Positions 33,217-41,928 of a DNA stretch of 64,000 nucleotides are shown here, in pieces. The stretch comes from a bacterium BMS3Bbin03 (lineage in GTDB: Bacteria > Zhuqueibacterota > JdFR-76 > BMS3Abin05), in the NCBI GenBank assembly GCA_002898015.1, contig BDTM01000016.1, forward strand, positions 38,535 through 102,534, in the 5' to 3' direction. A program made the translations under genes and the position numbers. The notes under the pieces are model-generated. The model was given only the letters and a program-made list of their open reading frames with translations, was not told the DNA's origin and ran no database searches. Position 1 is the stretch's first letter; each line of letters opens with the position of its first letter.

Positions 33217-35574
33217 ATGCAAAAAATCGAAAGAGACGATGTAACCATCGAAATCAATAACAAGCTACCGGTGCTTCCGCTCAAGGAAACGGTAGTTTTT
33301 CCATATATGATCTATCCGCTTCTGGTTGGTCGCGAATCTTCGACCCATGCCCTTCAAGAGGCCTTGATGAGCGATAAACTCATTTTTCTGGTCGCCCAAA
33401 AGGATGTTCAGGAAGAAAGTCCGTTGGCCAGAGATCTGTACCGCGTGGGTGTTGTGGCCAGAGTTTTGCAGATTTTAAAATTGCCCAACGGCCTTGTGAA
33501 GGTTCTGGTTGAAGGAATTGTGCGGGCACGGGTAAGGCGTTACTGGAAAATTGAGGATTTTTATCGCAGTACAATTGAGATCGTCCCGGAAACGCTGAAG
33601 GCCAACACAAAAATTGAAGCCGGACTTCGGCATGTGCTGACGTTATTCAAAGAATACATTCTTCTGAACCGGGATGTACCTGACGAACTGATTCTAACGG
33701 TCGGAAGTCTCGAGAATCCCCATCGGATCACGGATTTTATCGCGGCTCATGTCACCCAAAAAATGTCTGATAAACAGCGGCTGCTTGAGGTGAAATCGCT
33801 TCTGCAGGAATTACTTGAACTTTCCCGTATTTTAGAATCTGAAAAAGAGATTTTGCAAATTGAGCGAAATATCGATGACCAGGTTCGCGACCGGATGCAG
33901 AAATCCCAGAGGAATTACTATTTGCAGGAACAGCTTCGTGTGATTAAGCAGGAATTGGGCGAAGAAGATGAAGTTGTCGGCGATGTTCAGCTTTTAATGC
34001 AGAAGATTAAAAAAGCCGGCATGCCGGAGAACGTGAAGGAGAAAGCTTACGAAGAAATTGACAAACTGAAATTCACGCCGACGATGTCACCCGAATACAC
34101 GGTCACCCGGAATTATCTCGATTGGCTGCTGGCCATGCCCTGGAAAAAACGGACCAAGGATAATTTGGATCTAAAAAATGTCCAGAAAGCGCTTGATTCT
34201 GACCATTACGGCCTGCAGAAAGCCAAGGAAAGAATTCTGGAGCATCTGGCTGTTATGAAGCTGGTAAAACGGGTGAAGGGTCCCATCCTTTGCCTGGTCG
34301 GCCCGCCCGGTGTCGGGAAAACCTCGCTGGGCCGTTCCATCGCGCGGGCAATGAAGCGGAATTTTATCCGTGTGTCTCTGGGGGGTGTTCGCGATGAAGC
34401 CGAAATTCGGGGTCACCGGAAGACGTATATTGGTTCCATGCCGGGGCGTATTATTCAATCCATTAAAAAAGCGGGCACACGAAATCCCGTGTTTCTATTG
34501 GATGAAATTGACAAAATGAGTGTCGATTTCCGGGGTGATCCTTCAGCCGCCCTGTTGGAAGTACTCGATCCCGAACAAAACAGAAATTTCAGCGATCACT
34601 ATCTGGAAGTTGAGTTCGATCTTTCGGAAGTCATGTTCATCACAACGGCCAATGTCCGGTATAATATTCCGCTGCCTTTAATCGATCGTATGGAGATCAT
34701 CGAACTTCCCGGGTACATGGAATTCGACAAGTTGGAAATTGCCAAAAAGTTTTTGCTGCCGAAACAAATGAAGGAGACCGGTCTCACCCCCGAGAATATT
34801 CGCATTTCCGATCAGGCGATCATGATGATTATTCGGGAATACACCCGTGAAGCCGGCGTTCGAAATATAGAGCGAAGTCTTTCAACGATTTGCCGAAAAG
34901 TGGCGCGAAAAATCGTTTCAAACCCCAATAAGATGTTTTATTCCATTACAGCCAAAAGTCTGGAAGATTATTTGGGTGTGCCCAAAGTACCCGAAAAGAC
35001 CATCGAGGAAGAAGAACTCATCGGTGCCGCCATTGGATTGGCCTGGACGGAGTTCGGGGGAGACATTTTGACGATCGAAGCCACGCCGATGGAGGGGAAG
35101 GCGGGATTGATACTGACGGGGAAACTGGGCGATGTGATGAAAGAGTCCGGACAGGCGGCGTTGAGCTTTGTGCGTTCAAATGCGAAGCGTTTTGGGATCG
35201 ATCCGAAATATTTTCAAAACCATGAAATTCACATTCATGTGCCGGAGGGGGCCATTCCAAAAGACGGCCCGTCGGCCGGGATTACAATGGCTCTCGCAAT
35301 GGTTTCGGCCATTATGAAGAAGGCCGTTTACCGGAATATTGCCATGACCGGTGAGATTACACTGCGCGGGCACGTGCTGCCGATCGGCGGTTTGAACGAA
35401 AAATTACTGGCTGCCCGCCGGGCAGGCATAAAAACGGTTCTTATCCCGGCAAAAAATGAGAAGGATCTGACGGAAGTTCCGCAAAAAATTAAAAAGGGCC
35501 TGGACATAAAATTGATTAATCACATGGATGATGTGCTGCGGCTGGCGATGAGGGACGGTTTTTCCATCTCTTAA
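33217..35574 (+). CDS. lon: Lon protease (LonA)
   Basis: LON N-domain, GPPGVGKTS Walker A, and protease Ser in [10 protein letters not shown]. Confidence 0.95.
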
Positions 35575-35684
35575 ACGGCAGGTACATCTTGAGAATGGAA
35601 GGAAATCAGGCTCCTGTTCGAATTGTAAAAATGCTCCCTCCGATTTTTATCCTGTCCATTTTATCAAAAAATTAATAAAAGACG

Positions 35685-36275
35685 ATGAAAAATCACCGGA
35701 CAAAATTTATTAAAAGTGTGCTTAATCTACATGATTTACCGAAAGACCGGTTTCCGCAGATTGCTTTTTCCGGACGGTCGAACGTGGGGAAATCGTCGCT
35801 GATCAATGTCATTTTAAATCAAAAAAGCCTGGTCAAAATAAGTTCAACGCCCGGTAAAACGAGGAGTCTCAATTTCTTTTTAATCGACGATCAATTTTAT
35901 CTGGTGGATTTACCGGGGTACGGATTTGCAAAAGTGTCAAAAAATGAGAAACTTCGGTGGCGGCGGCTCATTGAAGGTTATCTATCCGCCTCCGAGAATC
36001 TTAAAGGCACAATTCTTATTATTGACGCGAGGATCGGCTTTACAGAACTGGATCGAATGATGGTTTCCTGGCTGAGAGAAATTGAACGGCCATTCCGGGT
36101 CGTTGCCACTAAAATTGACAAACTCTCCCGGAATGAACAGACAAAACAGTTGAAAAAAATAAACCGATGGCTTGATGAAATTAAAACGGAGTCCGCCATT
36201 CCGTTTTCAGCAAAAACAAAAGAGGGAAAAACGGCCGTCTGGAAAGTGTTGAATGCGTTTATGCAGCATCCGTAA
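35685..36275 (+). CDS. engB: Ribosome biogenesis GTP-binding protein YihA/YsxC
   Basis: GRSNVGKSSLIN, DLPGYGFA and ATKIDK motifs. Confidence 0.9.
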   Translation: MKNHRTKFIKSVLNLHDLPKDRFPQIAFSGRSNVGKSSLINVILNQKSLVKISSTPGKTRSLNFFLIDDQFYLVDLPGYGFAKVSKNEKLRWRRLIEGYLSASENLKGTILIIDARIGFTELDRMMVSWLREIERPFRVVATKIDKLSRNEQTKQLKKINRWLDEIKTESAIPFSAKTKEGKTAVWKVLNAFMQHP

Positions 36276-36305
36276 ACAGGTTTTTAAAGCGAAAGGGCAA
36301 ATGTA

Positions 36306-37448
36306 ATGAAAATACGATTGTTTACACCCGGTCCGACACCGGTTCCGGAGAAGGTCATGACTCGCATGGCCGACCCTATTCTTCATCATCGCACGAAAGA
36401 ATTTTCAAATATTTTTACGGAAGTTTCCGAAATATTAAAAGAACTTTTTCAGACGAAGGAAGACGTGATTATTTTAACCTCTTCCGGGACGGGAGCCATG
36501 GAGGCGGCTGTGGCAAACCATCTGAATCCGGGTGACGAGGTGTTGACGATTGAAGGGGGAAAATTCGGTGAACGTTGGGGAGAATTGTGCGAAGCTTATG
36601 GCGTGAAAGCGGTCCGAAAAGCCGTTCCCTGGGGCAGGGCTTTTACGCCGGATGAGATGAGAGAAACGTTGGAGAAAAAATCCGATTACAAGGCGGTTTT
36701 TCTCACACACAGCGAAACGTCCACCGGTGCGGCTATTGATCTCAGAAAAATATCGGAAGTGATCCACGCTAAAAGTGATGCCTTAATTATTGTGGATGGG
36801 ATCACATCGATTGGGGCGATGCCTTTAAAAATGGATGCCTGGGGGCTGGATGTCGTTATTACCGGCTCACAAAAGGGGCTGATGATTCCGCCGGGTCTGG
36901 CCTTTATCGCCCTGAGCAGACGGGCGTTGAAAGCGATGGAAGCCTGCCGGCAGCCGCGTTACTATTTTGATTTGCGCAAAGCCGTAAAATCCCTGCAAAG
37001 CCGGACAACCCCTTTCACACCCGCCGTCACATTGATTACAGGCCTGTTGGAAGCCCTGCGCATGATTCAGACGGAGGGTTTGGAAAATGTCTGGAAACGC
37101 CACGCTATTCTGGCGGATTCTACACGAAAGGCGGTTCGTGCCCTGGGTTTGGAATTGCTGGCGGATTCTCCGTCCAATGCGTTGACCGCTGTAAAAATTC
37201 CTGAACTGCTTTTATCCGCCGGAATTGACGGGCGTATGAAAGCGAAAGGTGTGATTGTGGCCGGCGGACAGAGTAAGTTGAAAGGCAAAATATTCCGCAT
37301 TTCTCATCTCGGTTATTATGATATTCAAGACATGTTTGCCGCGATCGGCACGCTGGAAGAAGTTTTGCAGGAAGAAAATTGGAATTTCGAGCCGGGAACC
37401 GGTGTTAAAATCTTGCAAACAAATTATTTACGTCTTATTCGAAAATGA
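36306..37448 (+). CDS. Class V aminotransferase (serine-glyoxylate / phosphoserine aminotransferase-like)
   Basis: FTPGPTPVPEKV N-terminus and the PLP-Lys context GSQKGL. It sits directly upstream of serA. Confidence 0.8.
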   Translation: MKIRLFTPGPTPVPEKVMTRMADPILHHRTKEFSNIFTEVSEILKELFQTKEDVIILTSSGTGAMEAAVANHLNPGDEVLTIEGGKFGERWGELCEAYGVKAVRKAVPWGRAFTPDEMRETLEKKSDYKAVFLTHSETSTGAAIDLRKISEVIHAKSDALIIVDGITSIGAMPLKMDAWGLDVVITGSQKGLMIPPGLAFIALSRRALKAMEACRQPRYYFDLRKAVKSLQSRTTPFTPAVTLITGLLEALRMIQTEGLENVWKRHAILADSTRKAVRALGLELLADSPSNALTAVKIPELLLSAGIDGRMKAKGVIVAGGQSKLKGKIFRISHLGYYDIQDMFAAIGTLEEVLQEENWNFEPGTGVKILQTNYLRLIRK

Positions 37449-37465
37449 GTCTGGAAGGAGATAAG

Positions 37466-38431
37466 ATGGAAGAAACAATTAAAATTTTAATCCCGGATGA
37501 TCTGCCCAAAGCCTGTATGGATACCTTTGAATCGGCAGGATTTGCGGTTACTTTTGAACCCGACCTTTCTCCGGAGGCGCTTTTGGCGAAGGTGAAAGAC
37601 TACGATGGAATGGTGGTTCGGAGTCGAGTCAAAGTGACCCGCGAAATAATTGAAAGCTCGGATCGCTTAAAATTAATCGGCAGGGCCGGCGTTGGCTACG
37701 ATAATATCGATGTGGAGGCGGCCACAGAAAGAGGCGTGGCGGTTATGAATGTTCCGGGCGCAAATGCAGTCTCTGTGGCGGAGCTTACGATGGTTATGAT
37801 GCTCAGTTTGGCCCGAAATCTGATCGAGGCCAACGAATCTACAAAGGCCGGGAAGTGGGAGAAAAAGCGCTTTAAAGGAAATGAAATCATGGGAAAGACC
37901 CTGGGGTTGATTGGTCTTGGCAAAGTCGGTGTCGAGGTGGCCAAACGCGGCATCGGGTTCGGCATGAAAGTGATCGCGAACGATCCCCGCTTCACATCTG
38001 ATTCGGCTGTTCCTTTCGGTGCAAAAATTATTGATCTGGACCAATTGCTGGGACAATCGGATTACATCTCGCTGCATTTACCTTTAACCGAAAATACGTA
38101 TCACATGCTGAATGAACAGACACTCAACCGCTGTAAGCGAGGTGTGCGGATTGTCAATTGTGCAAGGGGCGAAATTATCGATGAGCAGGCACTTTACGAA
38201 GCCATTCAATCGGGACAGGTGGCCGGAGCGGCGCTGGATGTTTATGAAAAAGAACCTCCTAAAGACAGCCCGCTGCGGGAATTGACGAATGTAATCATGA
38301 CGCCGCATATTGGGGCTTCTACTGTGGAAGCGCAAATTCGGGTGGCGATAAATGTGGCCCGCCAGATGGTCAATTTCTTTAAAGAAGAAAAAATTGAAAA
38401 TGTGGTGAATCCGGAGGCCATTTTAAAATAG
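37466..38431 (+). CDS. serA: D-3-phosphoglycerate dehydrogenase (short form, no ACT domain)
   Basis: GLIGLGKVGVEVA NAD fold, NCARGEIID, and TPHIGAST. The ATG at 37466 follows GGAAGGAGA (track start 37445). Confidence 0.85.
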   Translation: MEETIKILIPDDLPKACMDTFESAGFAVTFEPDLSPEALLAKVKDYDGMVVRSRVKVTREIIESSDRLKLIGRAGVGYDNIDVEAATERGVAVMNVPGANAVSVAELTMVMMLSLARNLIEANESTKAGKWEKKRFKGNEIMGKTLGLIGLGKVGVEVAKRGIGFGMKVIANDPRFTSDSAVPFGAKIIDLDQLLGQSDYISLHLPLTENTYHMLNEQTLNRCKRGVRIVNCARGEIIDEQALYEAIQSGQVAGAALDVYEKEPPKDSPLRELTNVIMTPHIGASTVEAQIRVAINVARQMVNFFKEEKIENVVNPEAILK

Positions 38432-38440
38432 AGAAAGACC

Positions 38441-38851
38441 ATGAAAATTCTCATGCTTTATGTGAATCGATTTTCATATAAAACCGCTTCGAAAGGTCTT
38501 GAAGGCGTTCCTGATCTTGATGAAGAAAATGAATTTAAAAATGCGGTTGTCGGGTTTGTACATCTGGAAGAAAAGGACGAAGAATCTGTCGCCGGCGCCA
38601 TCACAAAGTTAATCAAAAACCTGAAATGGCTGGCCGGAAAATGGAACACAAAAACGGTTGTACTGCACTCTTTTGCACATCTGGCGGAGAGCAAGGCATC
38701 TGCGGAGACTGTGGGGGAAGTGTTTGCCCGGGCGCGGGCGCGTCTGGAGGCCTCCGGCTACACGGTTGGCGAAACCCCTATCGGCTATTTCCTGGATCTT
38801 CATGTGGATGCGCCCGGTAAATCTCTGGCCCGCGTGTGGAAATCGTTTTGA
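38441..38851 (+). CDS. Free-standing archaeal-type threonyl-tRNA synthetase editing domain homologue (tRNA-Thr-ED-like)
   Basis: 136 aa, colinear with my memory of the Pyrococcus ThrRS N-terminal editing domain. MKILMLYVNRFSYKT matches MRVLLIHSDYIEYEV. VVLHSFAHLAES matches VFVYPFAHLSSE. GETPIGYFLDLHVDAPGKSLA matches [21 protein letters not shown]. Confidence 0.65.
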   Translation: MKILMLYVNRFSYKTASKGLEGVPDLDEENEFKNAVVGFVHLEEKDEESVAGAITKLIKNLKWLAGKWNTKTVVLHSFAHLAESKASAETVGEVFARARARLEASGYTVGETPIGYFLDLHVDAPGKSLARVWKSF

Positions 38852-38944
38852 AAAGAAAAATTAGTGAAATGGAATGCGGATGGCACTGGGATTACGGATT
38901 TTCGCTGATGTGACAATTTGAAGAAAAAGAGATAATCCAAACAC

Positions 38945-39772
38945 ATGCCGCTTGTTTCCGTTATTATTCCGACTTATAACCGGAGTCGATGGATCGGAAA
39001 GGCTGTTGAATCTGTCCTGAATCAGACGTTTCAGGATTTTGAGCTCATTGTGGTGGATGATGGCTCTACAGACGACACCGGTGAGAAATTAAGCCCCTAT
39101 TTAAATCGGATTGTGCTTTTATCGCAGCCGAACCGGGGGGTGAGCGCCGCCCGAAATCTGGGAGTTCGGCGCGCGTCGGGGAAGTACTTCTGTTTTCTGG
39201 ATTCGGATGACTTGTGGCGATCGCGGAAGCTTGAGATTCAGTTGGCCAAAATGCACGAGAAACCGGAATACAAGGTGAGTTACACAGATGAAATCTGGAT
39301 CCGAAACGGCAAATGGGCCAATCCTAAAAAACGCCACCAAAAATATTCCGGTTGGATTTTCCGGAAATTGCTGCCCCTGTGTATCATCAGCCCCTCTTCA
39401 ATTATGATTAAACAAACGGTTTTTGAGGCAGCCGGTCTTTTTGACGAATCGCTTCCGGCGGGTGAAGATTATGATCTCTGGCTTCGAATCGGCAGCCGGT
39501 ATCCGATTTTATTCATTCCGCAGAAATTAATTATCAAGCACGGGGGGCACTCCGATCAACTCTCACAAAAATACTGGGGCCTGGATCGATTTCGGGTGCG
39601 ATCTATTGTGAAGGTGCTGGGGAAAGGCAATCTTTCGGCAGAAGACGAACGGGCAGCCTGTGAAATGCTTGTGCAAAAATGCGGTATTTTGGCGGCGGGG
39701 TGCGCCAAACGCGGCAAATTGAAAGAGGCAGCTTACTATCAAAAGATTGCAGAGAAATATTCTGTCGATTAA
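38945..39772 (+). CDS. Family 2 glycosyltransferase
   Basis: VSVIIPTYNR, VVDDGSTDDT and FLDSDD motifs. Confidence 0.85.
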   Translation: MPLVSVIIPTYNRSRWIGKAVESVLNQTFQDFELIVVDDGSTDDTGEKLSPYLNRIVLLSQPNRGVSAARNLGVRRASGKYFCFLDSDDLWRSRKLEIQLAKMHEKPEYKVSYTDEIWIRNGKWANPKKRHQKYSGWIFRKLLPLCIISPSSIMIKQTVFEAAGLFDESLPAGEDYDLWLRIGSRYPILFIPQKLIIKHGGHSDQLSQKYWGLDRFRVRSIVKVLGKGNLSAEDERAACEMLVQKCGILAAGCAKRGKLKEAAYYQKIAEKYSVD

Positions 39773-39847
39773 ATCAATGGCTGTTGGATCGATGGGACAG
39801 CTCGTTGGTTTTAAGTTATTTAATGCAATAGTGATGGGAAAAATGAA

Positions 39848-40816
39848 ATGCTGACCATTCCTTTGAATCAGATAATCGATCAGGATGATTTTTACCGGAT
39901 CACTTTTTTGCCGGATTTGCGGCCCCTTGTGGAATCGATGAAGCGAATCGGACAGAGTCAGCCGATTTTGGTGCAGCCTGTTTCAGGGGTTTTTTACAGA
40001 ATCGTATCCGGGTTTAAGCGTTTTTGGGCGGCAAAGGAATTAAATTGGTCCGATATCCGGGCTGAAACGGCAGAGGTTGATTCGGAACAGCCCTTTTCTC
40101 TTTTTCAAAAATCTCTTTTTGAAAATCTGGCAATTCGCCAATTGAATTGGGTTGAAAAGGCTTTTGTGCTGCAGAAATTAGTGCAACAATTTCAAATACC
40201 CCGGGAAAAAATAATATCGGAATGGCTGCCGATTTTAAACATCGGGAAAAATCAAAAATGGCTGGTATGGCTGTCAAAAATCCCGGACTACGAACTTATT
40301 GTGAAGGAAGCGATTGCGAAAGACGAAATCACCTTTGACTTATTTGAGTTTTTTCCTGCGCTTTCTGCAGATGATCGCGTGGCTCTTGTTCAATTTTACC
40401 GCGAGTTGAAATTGGGAAAAAATCGCCAGAAGGAATTCTTCTACTTGTTACGCGATGTGATGCAGCGCGATAATACTTCAATGACTCATCTTTTGGAAAA
40501 TCAGGATGTTCAACAGATTGTAAAAGCCGAAGACCTTGCACTTGGAAATAAAGTTCAAAAGATCAGGGGGATTTTACGCCGGTGGCGCTACTCGTCTATG
40601 AATGAGATGGAAAAGAGATTTCGCGAAATTGTTCACAGCCTGCGCCTGCCGCCGGGCATTCAACTCCTGCCGCCGCAGAATTTTGAAGGAGATAAATTCC
40701 GAATGACGTTTACATTTCGGACGCCGGAGGATTTTTCCGGAGTAGTCGCAAAACTTCAGGAGATCACGGCTTCCGGTGACCTCACGGCGCTCACCTCATT
40801 GTGGGAAGCTGACTGA
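39848..40816 (+). CDS. ParB N-terminal (ParB/Srx-fold) domain protein
   Basis: The N-terminal ~80 aa (LRPLVESMKRIGQSQPILVQP...YRIVSGFKRFWAAKEL) fit the ParB-like nuclease/CTPase domain. The remainder is unrecognised. The stop overlaps the next start (TGATG). Confidence 0.65.
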   Translation: MLTIPLNQIIDQDDFYRITFLPDLRPLVESMKRIGQSQPILVQPVSGVFYRIVSGFKRFWAAKELNWSDIRAETAEVDSEQPFSLFQKSLFENLAIRQLNWVEKAFVLQKLVQQFQIPREKIISEWLPILNIGKNQKWLVWLSKIPDYELIVKEAIAKDEITFDLFEFFPALSADDRVALVQFYRELKLGKNRQKEFFYLLRDVMQRDNTSMTHLLENQDVQQIVKAEDLALGNKVQKIRGILRRWRYSSMNEMEKRFREIVHSLRLPPGIQLLPPQNFEGDKFRMTFTFRTPEDFSGVVAKLQEITASGDLTALTSLWEAD

Positions 40817-41928
40817 TGCCTTACCGGAAATATATCCCGGAAAAAATCATTGTGGAAAAGCGGGTCTGGGAGCTTCCCTGGACACAGGAAATACTGTCGC
40901 GTATGAAGGGCCTGCCGGTCCGGAAAATTTCCACAATTGAGGAAGAAGCTCTGGCCTGTCAAAAAGCCGTAATTTCCCCGGAGGAATCGCTTAAAACGCT
41001 GGCATTGGCGCAGCAGTCCGGTAAGTTTTTAAAACCCTGTCCCGGCACGTCCAACTACGTGTGCTGCGGATATTATTTTCTAAACATTGCCACCAATTGC
41101 GATGTGAATTGCACCTACTGCATTTTGCAAAGTTACCTGAATATTCCATTCATGGTCGTGTACACAAATATCGAAGATGCATTTCGTGAAACGGATGGTG
41201 TGCTGGGTGCGCATAAATTTCCGCTCTACCGAATCGGGACCGGTGAGTTGACGGACAGTTTAACCCTTGAACACATAACACACATGAGTGAAAAGCTCAT
41301 TCCCTATTTTGCGCAAAAAAAGAATGCCATTCTGGAACTCAAGACCAAAACCACACAAATTGAAAACCTGCTTCATCTGGAGCACAACCGGAAAATTGTT
41401 GTTTCCTGGTCCTTGAATCCGGATGAAATCATTCGAACGGAAGAAAAAAATGCCCCGTCACTGAAGGAACGTCTGGACGCAGCCCGGAAAGTGGATGCGG
41501 CCGGGTATCGGCTGGGCTTTCACTTCGATCCGATGATCGATTACCCCAATTGGGAAAGCGGCTATAAGGATGTGATTGGCAGATTGTTTGCCGCCGTTCA
41601 TTCCGGAAACATTGCCTGGATCAGCCTGGGAGCACTTCGTTATCCGGCACAAATGGATCGGCTGATTCGTGAACGGCATCCGGAAAGCAAGATTGTGTTG
41701 GGTGAATTGCTGCCCGGAAAGGACGGAAAATTGCGTTATTTCAGGATGCTGCGCCAGAGAATGTTTCGGAAGATGGTCGACTGGATTCATTCTCATGATC
41801 CGAATGTAACGGTCTACTTCTGCATGGAAAGCCCGGAGGTATGGAAATATGCTTTCCGGGAGCAGGTGCTTCAAAAATGCCCTTTACCCGGAATGCTCGA
41901 CAGATCTGTGTTTGAGTGGGCCAAATAA
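40816..41928 (+). CDS. Spore-photoproduct-lyase-family radical SAM enzyme
   Basis: CDVNCTYC (CX3CX2C) cluster. It is colinear with B. subtilis SplB as I recall it (N-terminal YIPEKIIVEKRVWELP; AARKVDAAGYRLGFHFDPM). Confidence 0.7.
   Translation: MPYRKYIPEKIIVEKRVWELPWTQEILSRMKGLPVRKISTIEEEALACQKAVISPEESLKTLALAQQSGKFLKPCPGTSNYVCCGYYFLNIATNCDVNCTYCILQSYLNIPFMVVYTNIEDAFRETDGVLGAHKFPLYRIGTGELTDSLTLEHITHMSEKLIPYFAQKKNAILELKTKTTQIENLLHLEHNRKIVVSWSLNPDEIIRTEEKNAPSLKERLDAARKVDAAGYRLGFHFDPMIDYPNWESGYKDVIGRLFAAVHSGNIAWISLGALRYPAQMDRLIRERHPESKIVLGELLPGKDGKLRYFRMLRQRMFRKMVDWIHSHDPNVTVYFCMESPEVWKYAFREQVLQKCPLPGMLDRSVFEWAK

Follow-up and report, generated by a model that had tools for sequence, protein, structure and literature searches.

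We analysed a 64,000-nucleotide stretch of DNA (the window) from the bacterium BMS3Bbin03 (contig BDTM01000016.1, positions 38,535 to 102,534 of the forward strand), in which an open reading frame (ORF) of 136 amino acids (38441..38851, + strand) encodes a free-standing protein of the tRNA-Thr_ED family. This family comprises the editing domain (ED) that forms the N-terminal domain (NTD) of the threonyl-tRNA synthetase (ThrRS) in archaea and has a DTD-like fold. The original prediction, made from the sequence alone, had placed the ORF behind genes for a class-V aminotransferase and SerA, and the ORF listing agreed with this layout, all three genes being on the same strand. The array starts with an EngB/YsxC-type GTPase gene (35685..36275, + strand; Pfam MMR_HSR1, E 7.7e-21), which is followed by the class-V (AGT/SGAT-type) aminotransferase of 380 amino acids (36306..37448, + strand; Pfam Aminotran_5, E 1.3e-32) and by a short SerA-like D-3-phosphoglycerate dehydrogenase (PGDH) of 328 amino acids without an ACT domain (37445..38431, + strand; TIGR01327, 410 bits). 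The aminotransferase stop codon and the SerA ATG overlap by 4 nt, and this pair is translationally coupled. Between the serA stop and the start of the ED gene we read 9 nt in the sequence. Scanning of positions 35500-40000 for promoters and terminators gave counts no different from those in shuffled sequences, and an Rfam scan of the window found no riboswitch and no T-box, only a tRNA.

In a hidden Markov model search with PF08915 (tRNA-Thr_ED) the protein matched the profile end to end (E 1.9e-34, with 119.1 bits where the cut-off is 30.2; residues 1-135 cover profile positions 1-136 of 137) and, as had been proposed, it is a free-standing, single-domain protein. The NCBIfam models of the archaeal ThrRS and of the crenarchaeal Ser-tRNA(Thr) hydrolase were matched over their first ~130 positions only and far under their cut-offs, which is the pattern due from a lone editing domain. 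An AlphaFold model built on 29 relatives had a pLDDT of 93.9 and superposed on the NTDs of P. abyssi (template modelling (TM) score 0.93, root-mean-square deviation 1.7-1.9 Å), M. jannaschii (TM 0.92) and A. pernix (TM 0.83). The likeness to the archaeal NTD (1Y2Q/2HL1, 4RRF and 4RR6; TM 0.83-0.93) is thus one of both Pfam family and fold, although identity in the fold alignments is only 19-26% and a very long branch lies between the two groups. Moreover, the archaeal NTD is fused to ThrRS, whereas the window protein stands alone in a host whose ThrRS is bacterial and carries the N2 editing domain. Among four family-level orthologues the ratio of nonsynonymous to synonymous substitution rates (dN/dS) was 0.03-0.08 (0.035 for the least saturated pair, with dS 0.64), and therefore the ORF is a real gene under selection.

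The protein was colinear with the P. abyssi NTD over ~135 residues with one 3-residue indel, beyond which window residue n corresponds to P. abyssi residue n+3, and it shared the E..DE, F-A-H-L, P-x-G and G-x-x-L-A elements of the archaeal domain. In this alignment the active-site strand H76-S77-F78-A79-H80-L81 (38666..38683, + strand) corresponds to the archaeal Y-P-[FY]-A-H-L, the pocket strand I114-G115-Y116-F117-L118-D119-L120 (38780..38800, + strand) to F-G-[YW]-Y-K-x-F, and the cross-subunit loop P125-G126-K127-S128-L129-A130-R131-V132 (38813..38836, + strand) to K-G-H-P-L-A-E-L. The side chains that lie ≤6 Å from the scissile bond in the P. abyssi NTD are those of Pro80, Phe81, Ala82, His83, Tyr120, Lys121 and the cross-subunit Glu134 (PMC4491819). 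The window protein has Ser77, Phe78, Ala79, His80, Phe117, Leu118 and Arg131 at these positions, respectively, and Tyr79 of P. abyssi is replaced by His76. The two residues emphasized in the original prediction fared differently. The His of FAHL is aligned as claimed (His80 with His83 of P. abyssi), and 193 of the 196 family sequences have a His there. As for GK(S/H)L, the protein has this motif (G126-K127-S128-L129), but the archaeal counterpart of the motif is the G-H-P-L loop and not the functional Lys121, to which Leu118 corresponds; position 127 is variable across the clade (K in 50, H in 35, E in 23 and R in 20 of 177 sequences; Y also occurs).

Lys121 of P. abyssi positions the catalytic water, and K-to-M mutants of the P. 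abyssi and A. pernix NTDs and of the M. jannaschii NTD were 'severely compromised' on Ser-tRNA(Thr) because this water was displaced (Ahmad et al. 2015, PMC4491819). Leu118 of the window protein falls exactly on the Met that was engineered into the K121M crystal form (4rrq). Glu134 binds the α-amino group of the substrate and is strictly conserved in archaea, yet the E134A protein was active in vitro (PMC4491819). In the family alignment the Lys121 column held Leu in 145 of the 196 sequences and Lys in 5, while the Glu134 column held R in 150, K in 35 and E in 5. The signature S-F-A-H-L / F-G-Y-F-L-D-L / R was found in ~145-150 of the 196, whereas archaeal ThrRS sequences aligned along with them have P-Y-A-H-L / F-G-[YW]-Y-K-x-F / E. 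The window protein (SFAHL / IGYFLDL / R) and a paralogue in the same genome (SFAHL / FGYFLDL / R) both follow the bacterial pattern. Compared with the archaeal NTD, the clade as a whole has Leu for Lys121, Arg for Glu134, Phe for Tyr120, Ser for Pro80 and His for Tyr79, and its further conserved substitutions comprise Lys59, Lys62, Trp63, Lys85 and Thr112 besides His76. By contrast, the E43/D46/H80/L81/P113/G115 scaffold is family-wide and common to archaeal NTDs, and H76, F78, H80, L81 and G115 are near-invariant across phyla. The conserved K59, K62, W63 and K85 lie on a helix surface and would suit nucleic-acid binding without an anticodon-binding domain. The scaffold and His80 have been retained while the substrate pocket has been re-wired, so that in its acyl (perhaps also its tRNA) specificity the protein most likely differs from the archaeal domain, which acts on Ser-tRNA(Thr).

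Action on D-aminoacyl-tRNAs had been offered as an alternative on the ground that the fold is shared with DTD2. This ground fell away: the relative in fold was DTD1 (TM 0.6-0.69), PF04414 (DTD2) had no match at E≤0.01 to the protein and none was found in the genome, and titles with 'DTD2' were absent among the top fold matches listed. DTD1 and its animal paralogue ATD resemble the window protein in being small, free-standing proteins of DTD-like fold, and they are dimeric deacylases, as the window protein would be; DTD1 also has a non-polar residue at the Lys121 position (Met, where the window protein has Leu). However, the Gly-Pro cross-subunit motif of DTD1 is absent from the window protein, in which P125-G126-K127-S128 forms this loop. 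We rejected an identity with DTD1, given the absence of this Gly-cisPro motif and of any match to PF02580 (PF08915 was the sole Pfam family at E≤0.01), and a separate DTD1 gene in the genome.

The ORF is a member of a bacterial clade that had already been catalogued, and a free-standing bacterial copy is thus not new. A search of 5.8 billion proteins returned 809 relatives of near-equal length, among them proteins of Cloacimonadota, Marinimicrobia, Zixibacteria, Caldithrix, Chlorobi and Deltaproteobacteria, and many are named 'threonyl-tRNA synthetase editing domain-containing protein' at NCBI. Exhaustive searching of 50%-identity representatives gave 372 clusters, and at least 561 genomes carried the family when one genome per species was scanned; the carriers include the cultured Saccharicrinis aurantiacus and metagenome-assembled genomes (MAGs) labelled Caldithrix abyssi. 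The window protein is 50-61% identical to proteins of Cloacimonadota, Calditrichota, Bacteroidota and other phyla. In a quick maximum-likelihood tree the bacterial stand-alone proteins were split from the archaeal ThrRS NTDs with 100% support in the Shimodaira-Hasegawa-like approximate likelihood ratio test (SH-aLRT) and by the very long branch, and the window copy clustered with its family orthologues, beside the Calditrichaceae copies. A search among longer proteins turned up no fused or extended version of the bacterial-type domain, which is weak evidence; the few longer matches were pieces of archaeal ThrRS or chimeric calls.

Mukai et al. 2017 (PMC5424206, Text S1) catalogued such free-standing 'tRNA-Thr-ED' proteins as wide in prokaryotes, noted that the equivalent of M. 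jannaschii Glu135 is lost, and guessed at hydrolysis of aminoacyl- or hydroxyacyl-tRNA without experiments. The window protein resembles these tRNA-Thr-ED proteins (PMC5424206, PMC8762117) in its length (~136 amino acids), in having no anticodon-binding domain and in the non-conserved Glu135. The cases discussed in that work were linked to SepCysS or SepRS and kept the serine motif, whereas no SepRS was found in the window genome, and the accessible passages of the main text and Text S1 contain no discussion of a serA-linked arrangement or of the Lys121-to-Leu change. Given the missing SepRS, we rejected for the window the tie to SepRS/SepCysS that marks the archaeal tRNA-Thr-ED cases. The bacterial branch is missing from a 2024 review of known free-standing editors (PMC11295145).

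Another trans-acting protein that shares the editing fold is the crenarchaeal ThrRS-ed. That free-standing protein was reportedly identified as a Ser-tRNA(Thr) hydrolase by Korencic et al. in 2004. Unlike the window protein, ThrRS-ed retains an anticodon-binding domain (PRK14938, 387 amino acids), and the window protein matched positions 1-128 only of this model, with 34 bits. ThrRS-ed also co-occurs with an editing-less ThrRS-cat, whereas the ThrRS of the window host edits in cis. The original prediction had raised a possible lack of the N2 domain in the genome's own ThrRS, and here the answer was negative: the single ThrRS (640 amino acids, with TGS, tRNA_SAD, catalytic core and anticodon-binding domains) is a normal bacterial enzyme with an intact N2 site, and comparison with the E. 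coli enzyme (1QF6) showed H73, H77, K156, D180, C182 and H186 all to be conserved. The host therefore has no need of a trans editor of Ser-tRNA(Thr). The genome also encodes DTD1 and an AlaX-type protein, the latter of which covers Ser-tRNA(Ala), and a single PF04073 (YbaK/INS) domain, located inside a 614-amino-acid frame that is a putative ProRS.

Archaeal NTDs are reported to prefer U73, and bacterial DTD requires a purine at position 73 (PMC11295145). Among all tRNA genes of the source genome (aragorn), U73 was limited to those for tRNA-Thr (three genes), tRNA-Gly (four) and tRNA-Cys (one). All three tRNA-Thr genes thus carry the discriminator that the archaeal NTD is thought to need, which fits a Ser-tRNA(Thr) editor. 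Across the phylum, however, U73 is found on every tRNA-Thr, in ED-positive and ED-negative relatives alike, and it therefore neither supports nor refutes tRNA-Thr as the substrate. Most tRNA genes of the source genome are without an encoded CCA, and a tRNA-SeC gene lies on its contig C136.

The genes upstream of the ED gene bear on the proposed tie to serine. The match of the SerA-like dehydrogenase to TIGR01327 covers model positions 1-312 of 525, the C-terminal ACT region being absent, and no other protein of the genome comes close to it as a PGDH candidate (the runner-up scored 144 bits). The nearest solved chains to the aminotransferase are the P. horikoshii 'serine aminotransferase' 2dr1 and serine-glyoxylate and serine-pyruvate aminotransferases; it is the sole match in the genome to the serC model TIGR01364, and no canonical SerC was found in the genome, which is 97% complete. 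It is probably the organism's phosphoserine (or serine) aminotransferase. A search of the genome for SerB with TIGR00338 gave weak HAD matches only. A phosphorylated serine pathway is probable in the host, the route served by the pair itself being either the phosphorylated or the hydroxypyruvate one. As the genome's only SerC-like and best PGDH candidates, the two genes are reasonably named 'serine-biosynthesis genes', and the tight linkage of the ED gene to such genes was upheld.

We surveyed synteny in 41 relatives and in a separate set of 80 ED loci from other lineages. All five members of the window's family (its own genome included) carried the ED gene. It also occurred in 3 of the 30 genomes from other parts of the phylum (beyond the order), and it was not found in six same-order genomes from other families. 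Linkage to serA held in 5/5 genomes of the family, with a spacing of 12-16 nt in the four others, but neither serA nor the aminotransferase gene was near ED at any of the 80 loci from other lineages. The EngB-aminotransferase-SerA order is also kept, with 44-53% identity, in G011 and G019, two relatives within the phylum that lack ED. Thus, in this one family (probably of the Calditrichota), the ED gene was appended to an older array, and it is therefore probably co-transcribed with serine synthesis. The proposed genetic link of a bacterial editing domain to serine synthesis is accordingly confined to the window's family.

These results allow the proposed function to be weighed, namely that the protein is a trans-editor of Ser-tRNA(Thr), or acts more broadly on Ser-tRNA with U73, is co-expressed with serine synthesis and backs up the Cys-dependent N2 site of ThrRS. 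Homology to and the fold of the Ser-specific archaeal NTD, the retained equivalent of His83 and the close spacing behind serA throughout the family are all in line with such a role, as is the lack of the ACT feedback domain in SerA; the window protein is also free of Cys and hence, presumably, not oxidation-sensitive, unlike the N2 site. In archaeal NTDs the β-OH of Ser is held by a main-chain NH and specificity is largely a matter of the main chain (PMC4491819), and there is a precedent for a deacylase encoded beside an amino-acid pathway, BesG (PMC13149037). On the other hand, the position of Lys121, where a K-to-M change cripples exactly this activity in three archaeal NTDs, is occupied by Leu, Glu134 is replaced by Arg, the host's own ThrRS has an intact cis-editing site and its AlaX-type protein deals with Ser-tRNA(Ala). 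Linkage to serine genes is missing from all 80 loci in other phyla, and ED-negative relatives have the same EngB-aminotransferase-SerA array as well as tRNA-Thr with U73. In addition, serine-synthesis operons are normally induced at serine scarcity and not when mischarging with Ser threatens. The domain and its linkage thus stood, but the function that had been attached to them was weakened, and we regard Ser-tRNA(Thr) editing as unlikely, if far from negligible.

Outside the window's family the gene has other companions. In an unbiased census of the 80 loci, a UbiE/TehB-like S-adenosylmethionine (SAM) methyltransferase recurred at 19, a SIR2 deacylase lay just downstream on the same strand within 2 kb at 14 (within 134 nt at 11), and a major facilitator superfamily (MFS) transporter, a NifX-like protein and an Old Yellow Enzyme (OYE)-type flavoprotein recurred at 12, 9 and 5, respectively. 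In MAGs of Marinimicrobia and Cloacimonadota (L018:1913-8999 and L035:1883-7147) these genes form a cassette of MFS transporter, UbiE/TehB-like SAM methyltransferase, Nitro_FeMo-Co NifX-like protein, OYE-type flavin/pyridine-nucleotide oxidoreductase, ED and SIR2. Cross-phylum sequence identity is high, and for this reason the cassette is suggested to be a laterally moving module. At three Calditrichaceae loci (L025:4619-6408, L061:2488-4292 and L064:4619-6408) the ED start is overlapped by the stop codon of a CCA-adding enzyme (PolyA_pol, HD and tRNA_NucTran2_2 domains), which acts on the tRNA 3' end. This arrangement hints at a link between ED and the tRNA 3' end, although the three loci are all from one family. 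In the window itself, a ParB_N-domain protein (322 amino acids) and a spore-photoproduct-lyase-like radical-SAM protein (370 amino acids; PF20903, E 9e-38) are encoded further downstream with a 1-nt overlap (39848-41928, + strand); they may form a DNA-repair or DNA-modification pair, and the host is probably non-sporulating.

Gene neighbourhoods that vary in this way across lineages, together with the lost water-positioning Lys, might be expected of a non-catalytic relic or of a factor that binds or protects the tRNA or its CCA end, whose place behind serA would be incidental. Protection of aminoacyl esters has indeed been raised as a primordial role of the fold (Ahmad et al., PMC4491819). Nevertheless, the gene is under strong purifying selection and its pocket residues are near-invariant across phyla, as is typical of an enzyme, and we consider such a role very improbable.

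The paralogue mentioned above is a second stand-alone copy on contig C25 (L007:8238-8648, minus strand), 48% identical to the window copy. A SIR2 gene follows, whose start and the stop codon of the paralogue have 4 nt in common (both genes, L007:7477-8648, minus strand), and in the tree the paralogue falls in a SIR2-linked subclade. Adjacency of ED and SIR2 was seen in Cloacimonadota, Fidelibacterota, Fermentibacterota, Bacteroidota and Desulfobacteraceae. The linked sirtuin belongs to a second subfamily, apart from the housekeeping one, with 61-80% identity across phyla; this subfamily occurred in 7 of the 41 relatives, and ED was adjacent in three of the seven. We found no evidence of gene displacement beside the second sirtuin in ED-negative relatives, as the neighbours varied (Dus, PrmC and others) with no consistent substitute. 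Near the paralogue (L007:5737-6734, minus strand), two adjacent 166-amino-acid ORFs with a 4-nt overlap divide the ArsP_1 'predicted permease' profile between them, one half each (positions 4-130 and 170-291 of 294), as a split gene or a two-subunit permease would, and genes for TauE, a PEMT-like methyltransferase and an ARMT1-like phosphatase are close by.

The sirtuin link raises the question of an ester without a free α-amino group. Because the Glu that binds this group has become Arg and the Lys that positions the water has become Leu, the pocket could instead accept an N-acyl- or hydroxyacyl-tRNA, or the 2'/3'-O-acyl-ADP-ribose made by sirtuins; this would be a new activity for the DTD-like fold and would apply to the whole clade, the paralogue included. 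R or K fills the Glu134 column in 185 of the 196 sequences and the K-to-L and Y-to-F changes make the pocket more hydrophobic, which fits this view, as do the 4-nt overlap of the paralogue with SIR2, the 14 of 80 loci with adjacent SIR2 and the distinctness of the sirtuin subfamily; hydroxyacyl-tRNA is also among the suggestions of Mukai et al. (PMC5424206, Text S1). But the link to SIR2 is not obligate, given that this sirtuin subfamily occurs without ED in 4 of its 7 carriers among the relatives, and the window copy does not adjoin a sirtuin. Furthermore, the source genome encodes a canonical macrodomain protein, of the usual O-acyl-ADP-ribose esterase family, and the acylated ribose of O-acyl-ADP-ribose carries no adenine, unlike that of A76. 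The Glu is moreover not essential for aminoacyl substrates, since the archaeal E134A NTD is still active (PMC4491819). Taken together, we think an activity of this kind improbable.

On balance, and by a modest preference, we favour a trans-acting acyl-tRNA deacylase of DTD-like fold with a specificity other than that of the archaeal NTD. By homology, the protein would be a small homodimeric hydrolase that binds the 3'-terminal adenosine of a charged tRNA and hydrolyses its acyl ester, assisted by the 2'-OH of the tRNA itself, in the way shown for archaeal NTDs. The candidate substrates include the U73 tRNAs (Thr, Gly and Cys), which bacterial DTD1 avoids, when they carry Gly, a D-aminoacyl group or another mischarged residue. 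Several points weigh against this preference. Our literature search returned no assay of any member of the bacterial clade, and the PDB holds archaeal NTDs only, with no crystal structure from the bacterial clade. According to Ahmad et al. (PMC4491819), NTD specificity resides mainly in the main chain, Tyr120 and Glu134 being dispensable, and side-chain changes alone are therefore no proof of a new specificity. DTD has a Met where the NTDs have Lys121 and is active. A serine-related role could, moreover, still lie behind the close association with serA, which is under selection and shared by five genomes of a single family.

Trans-editing factors set the error rate of translation. The clade to which the window protein belongs is large (at least 561 species' genomes, many of them from anaerobic and sediment phyla) and strongly conserved, and it departs from its only characterized relatives at Lys121, which their activity requires, and at the α-amino-binding Glu134. 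The locus itself leaves knowledge of the family unchanged, but it adds a lineage-specific joining to a serine operon and a sirtuin-coupled paralogue, both of which are handles for the choice of assays. With its substrate identified, the clade would extend the DTD-like fold by a new activity in quality control or ester hydrolysis.

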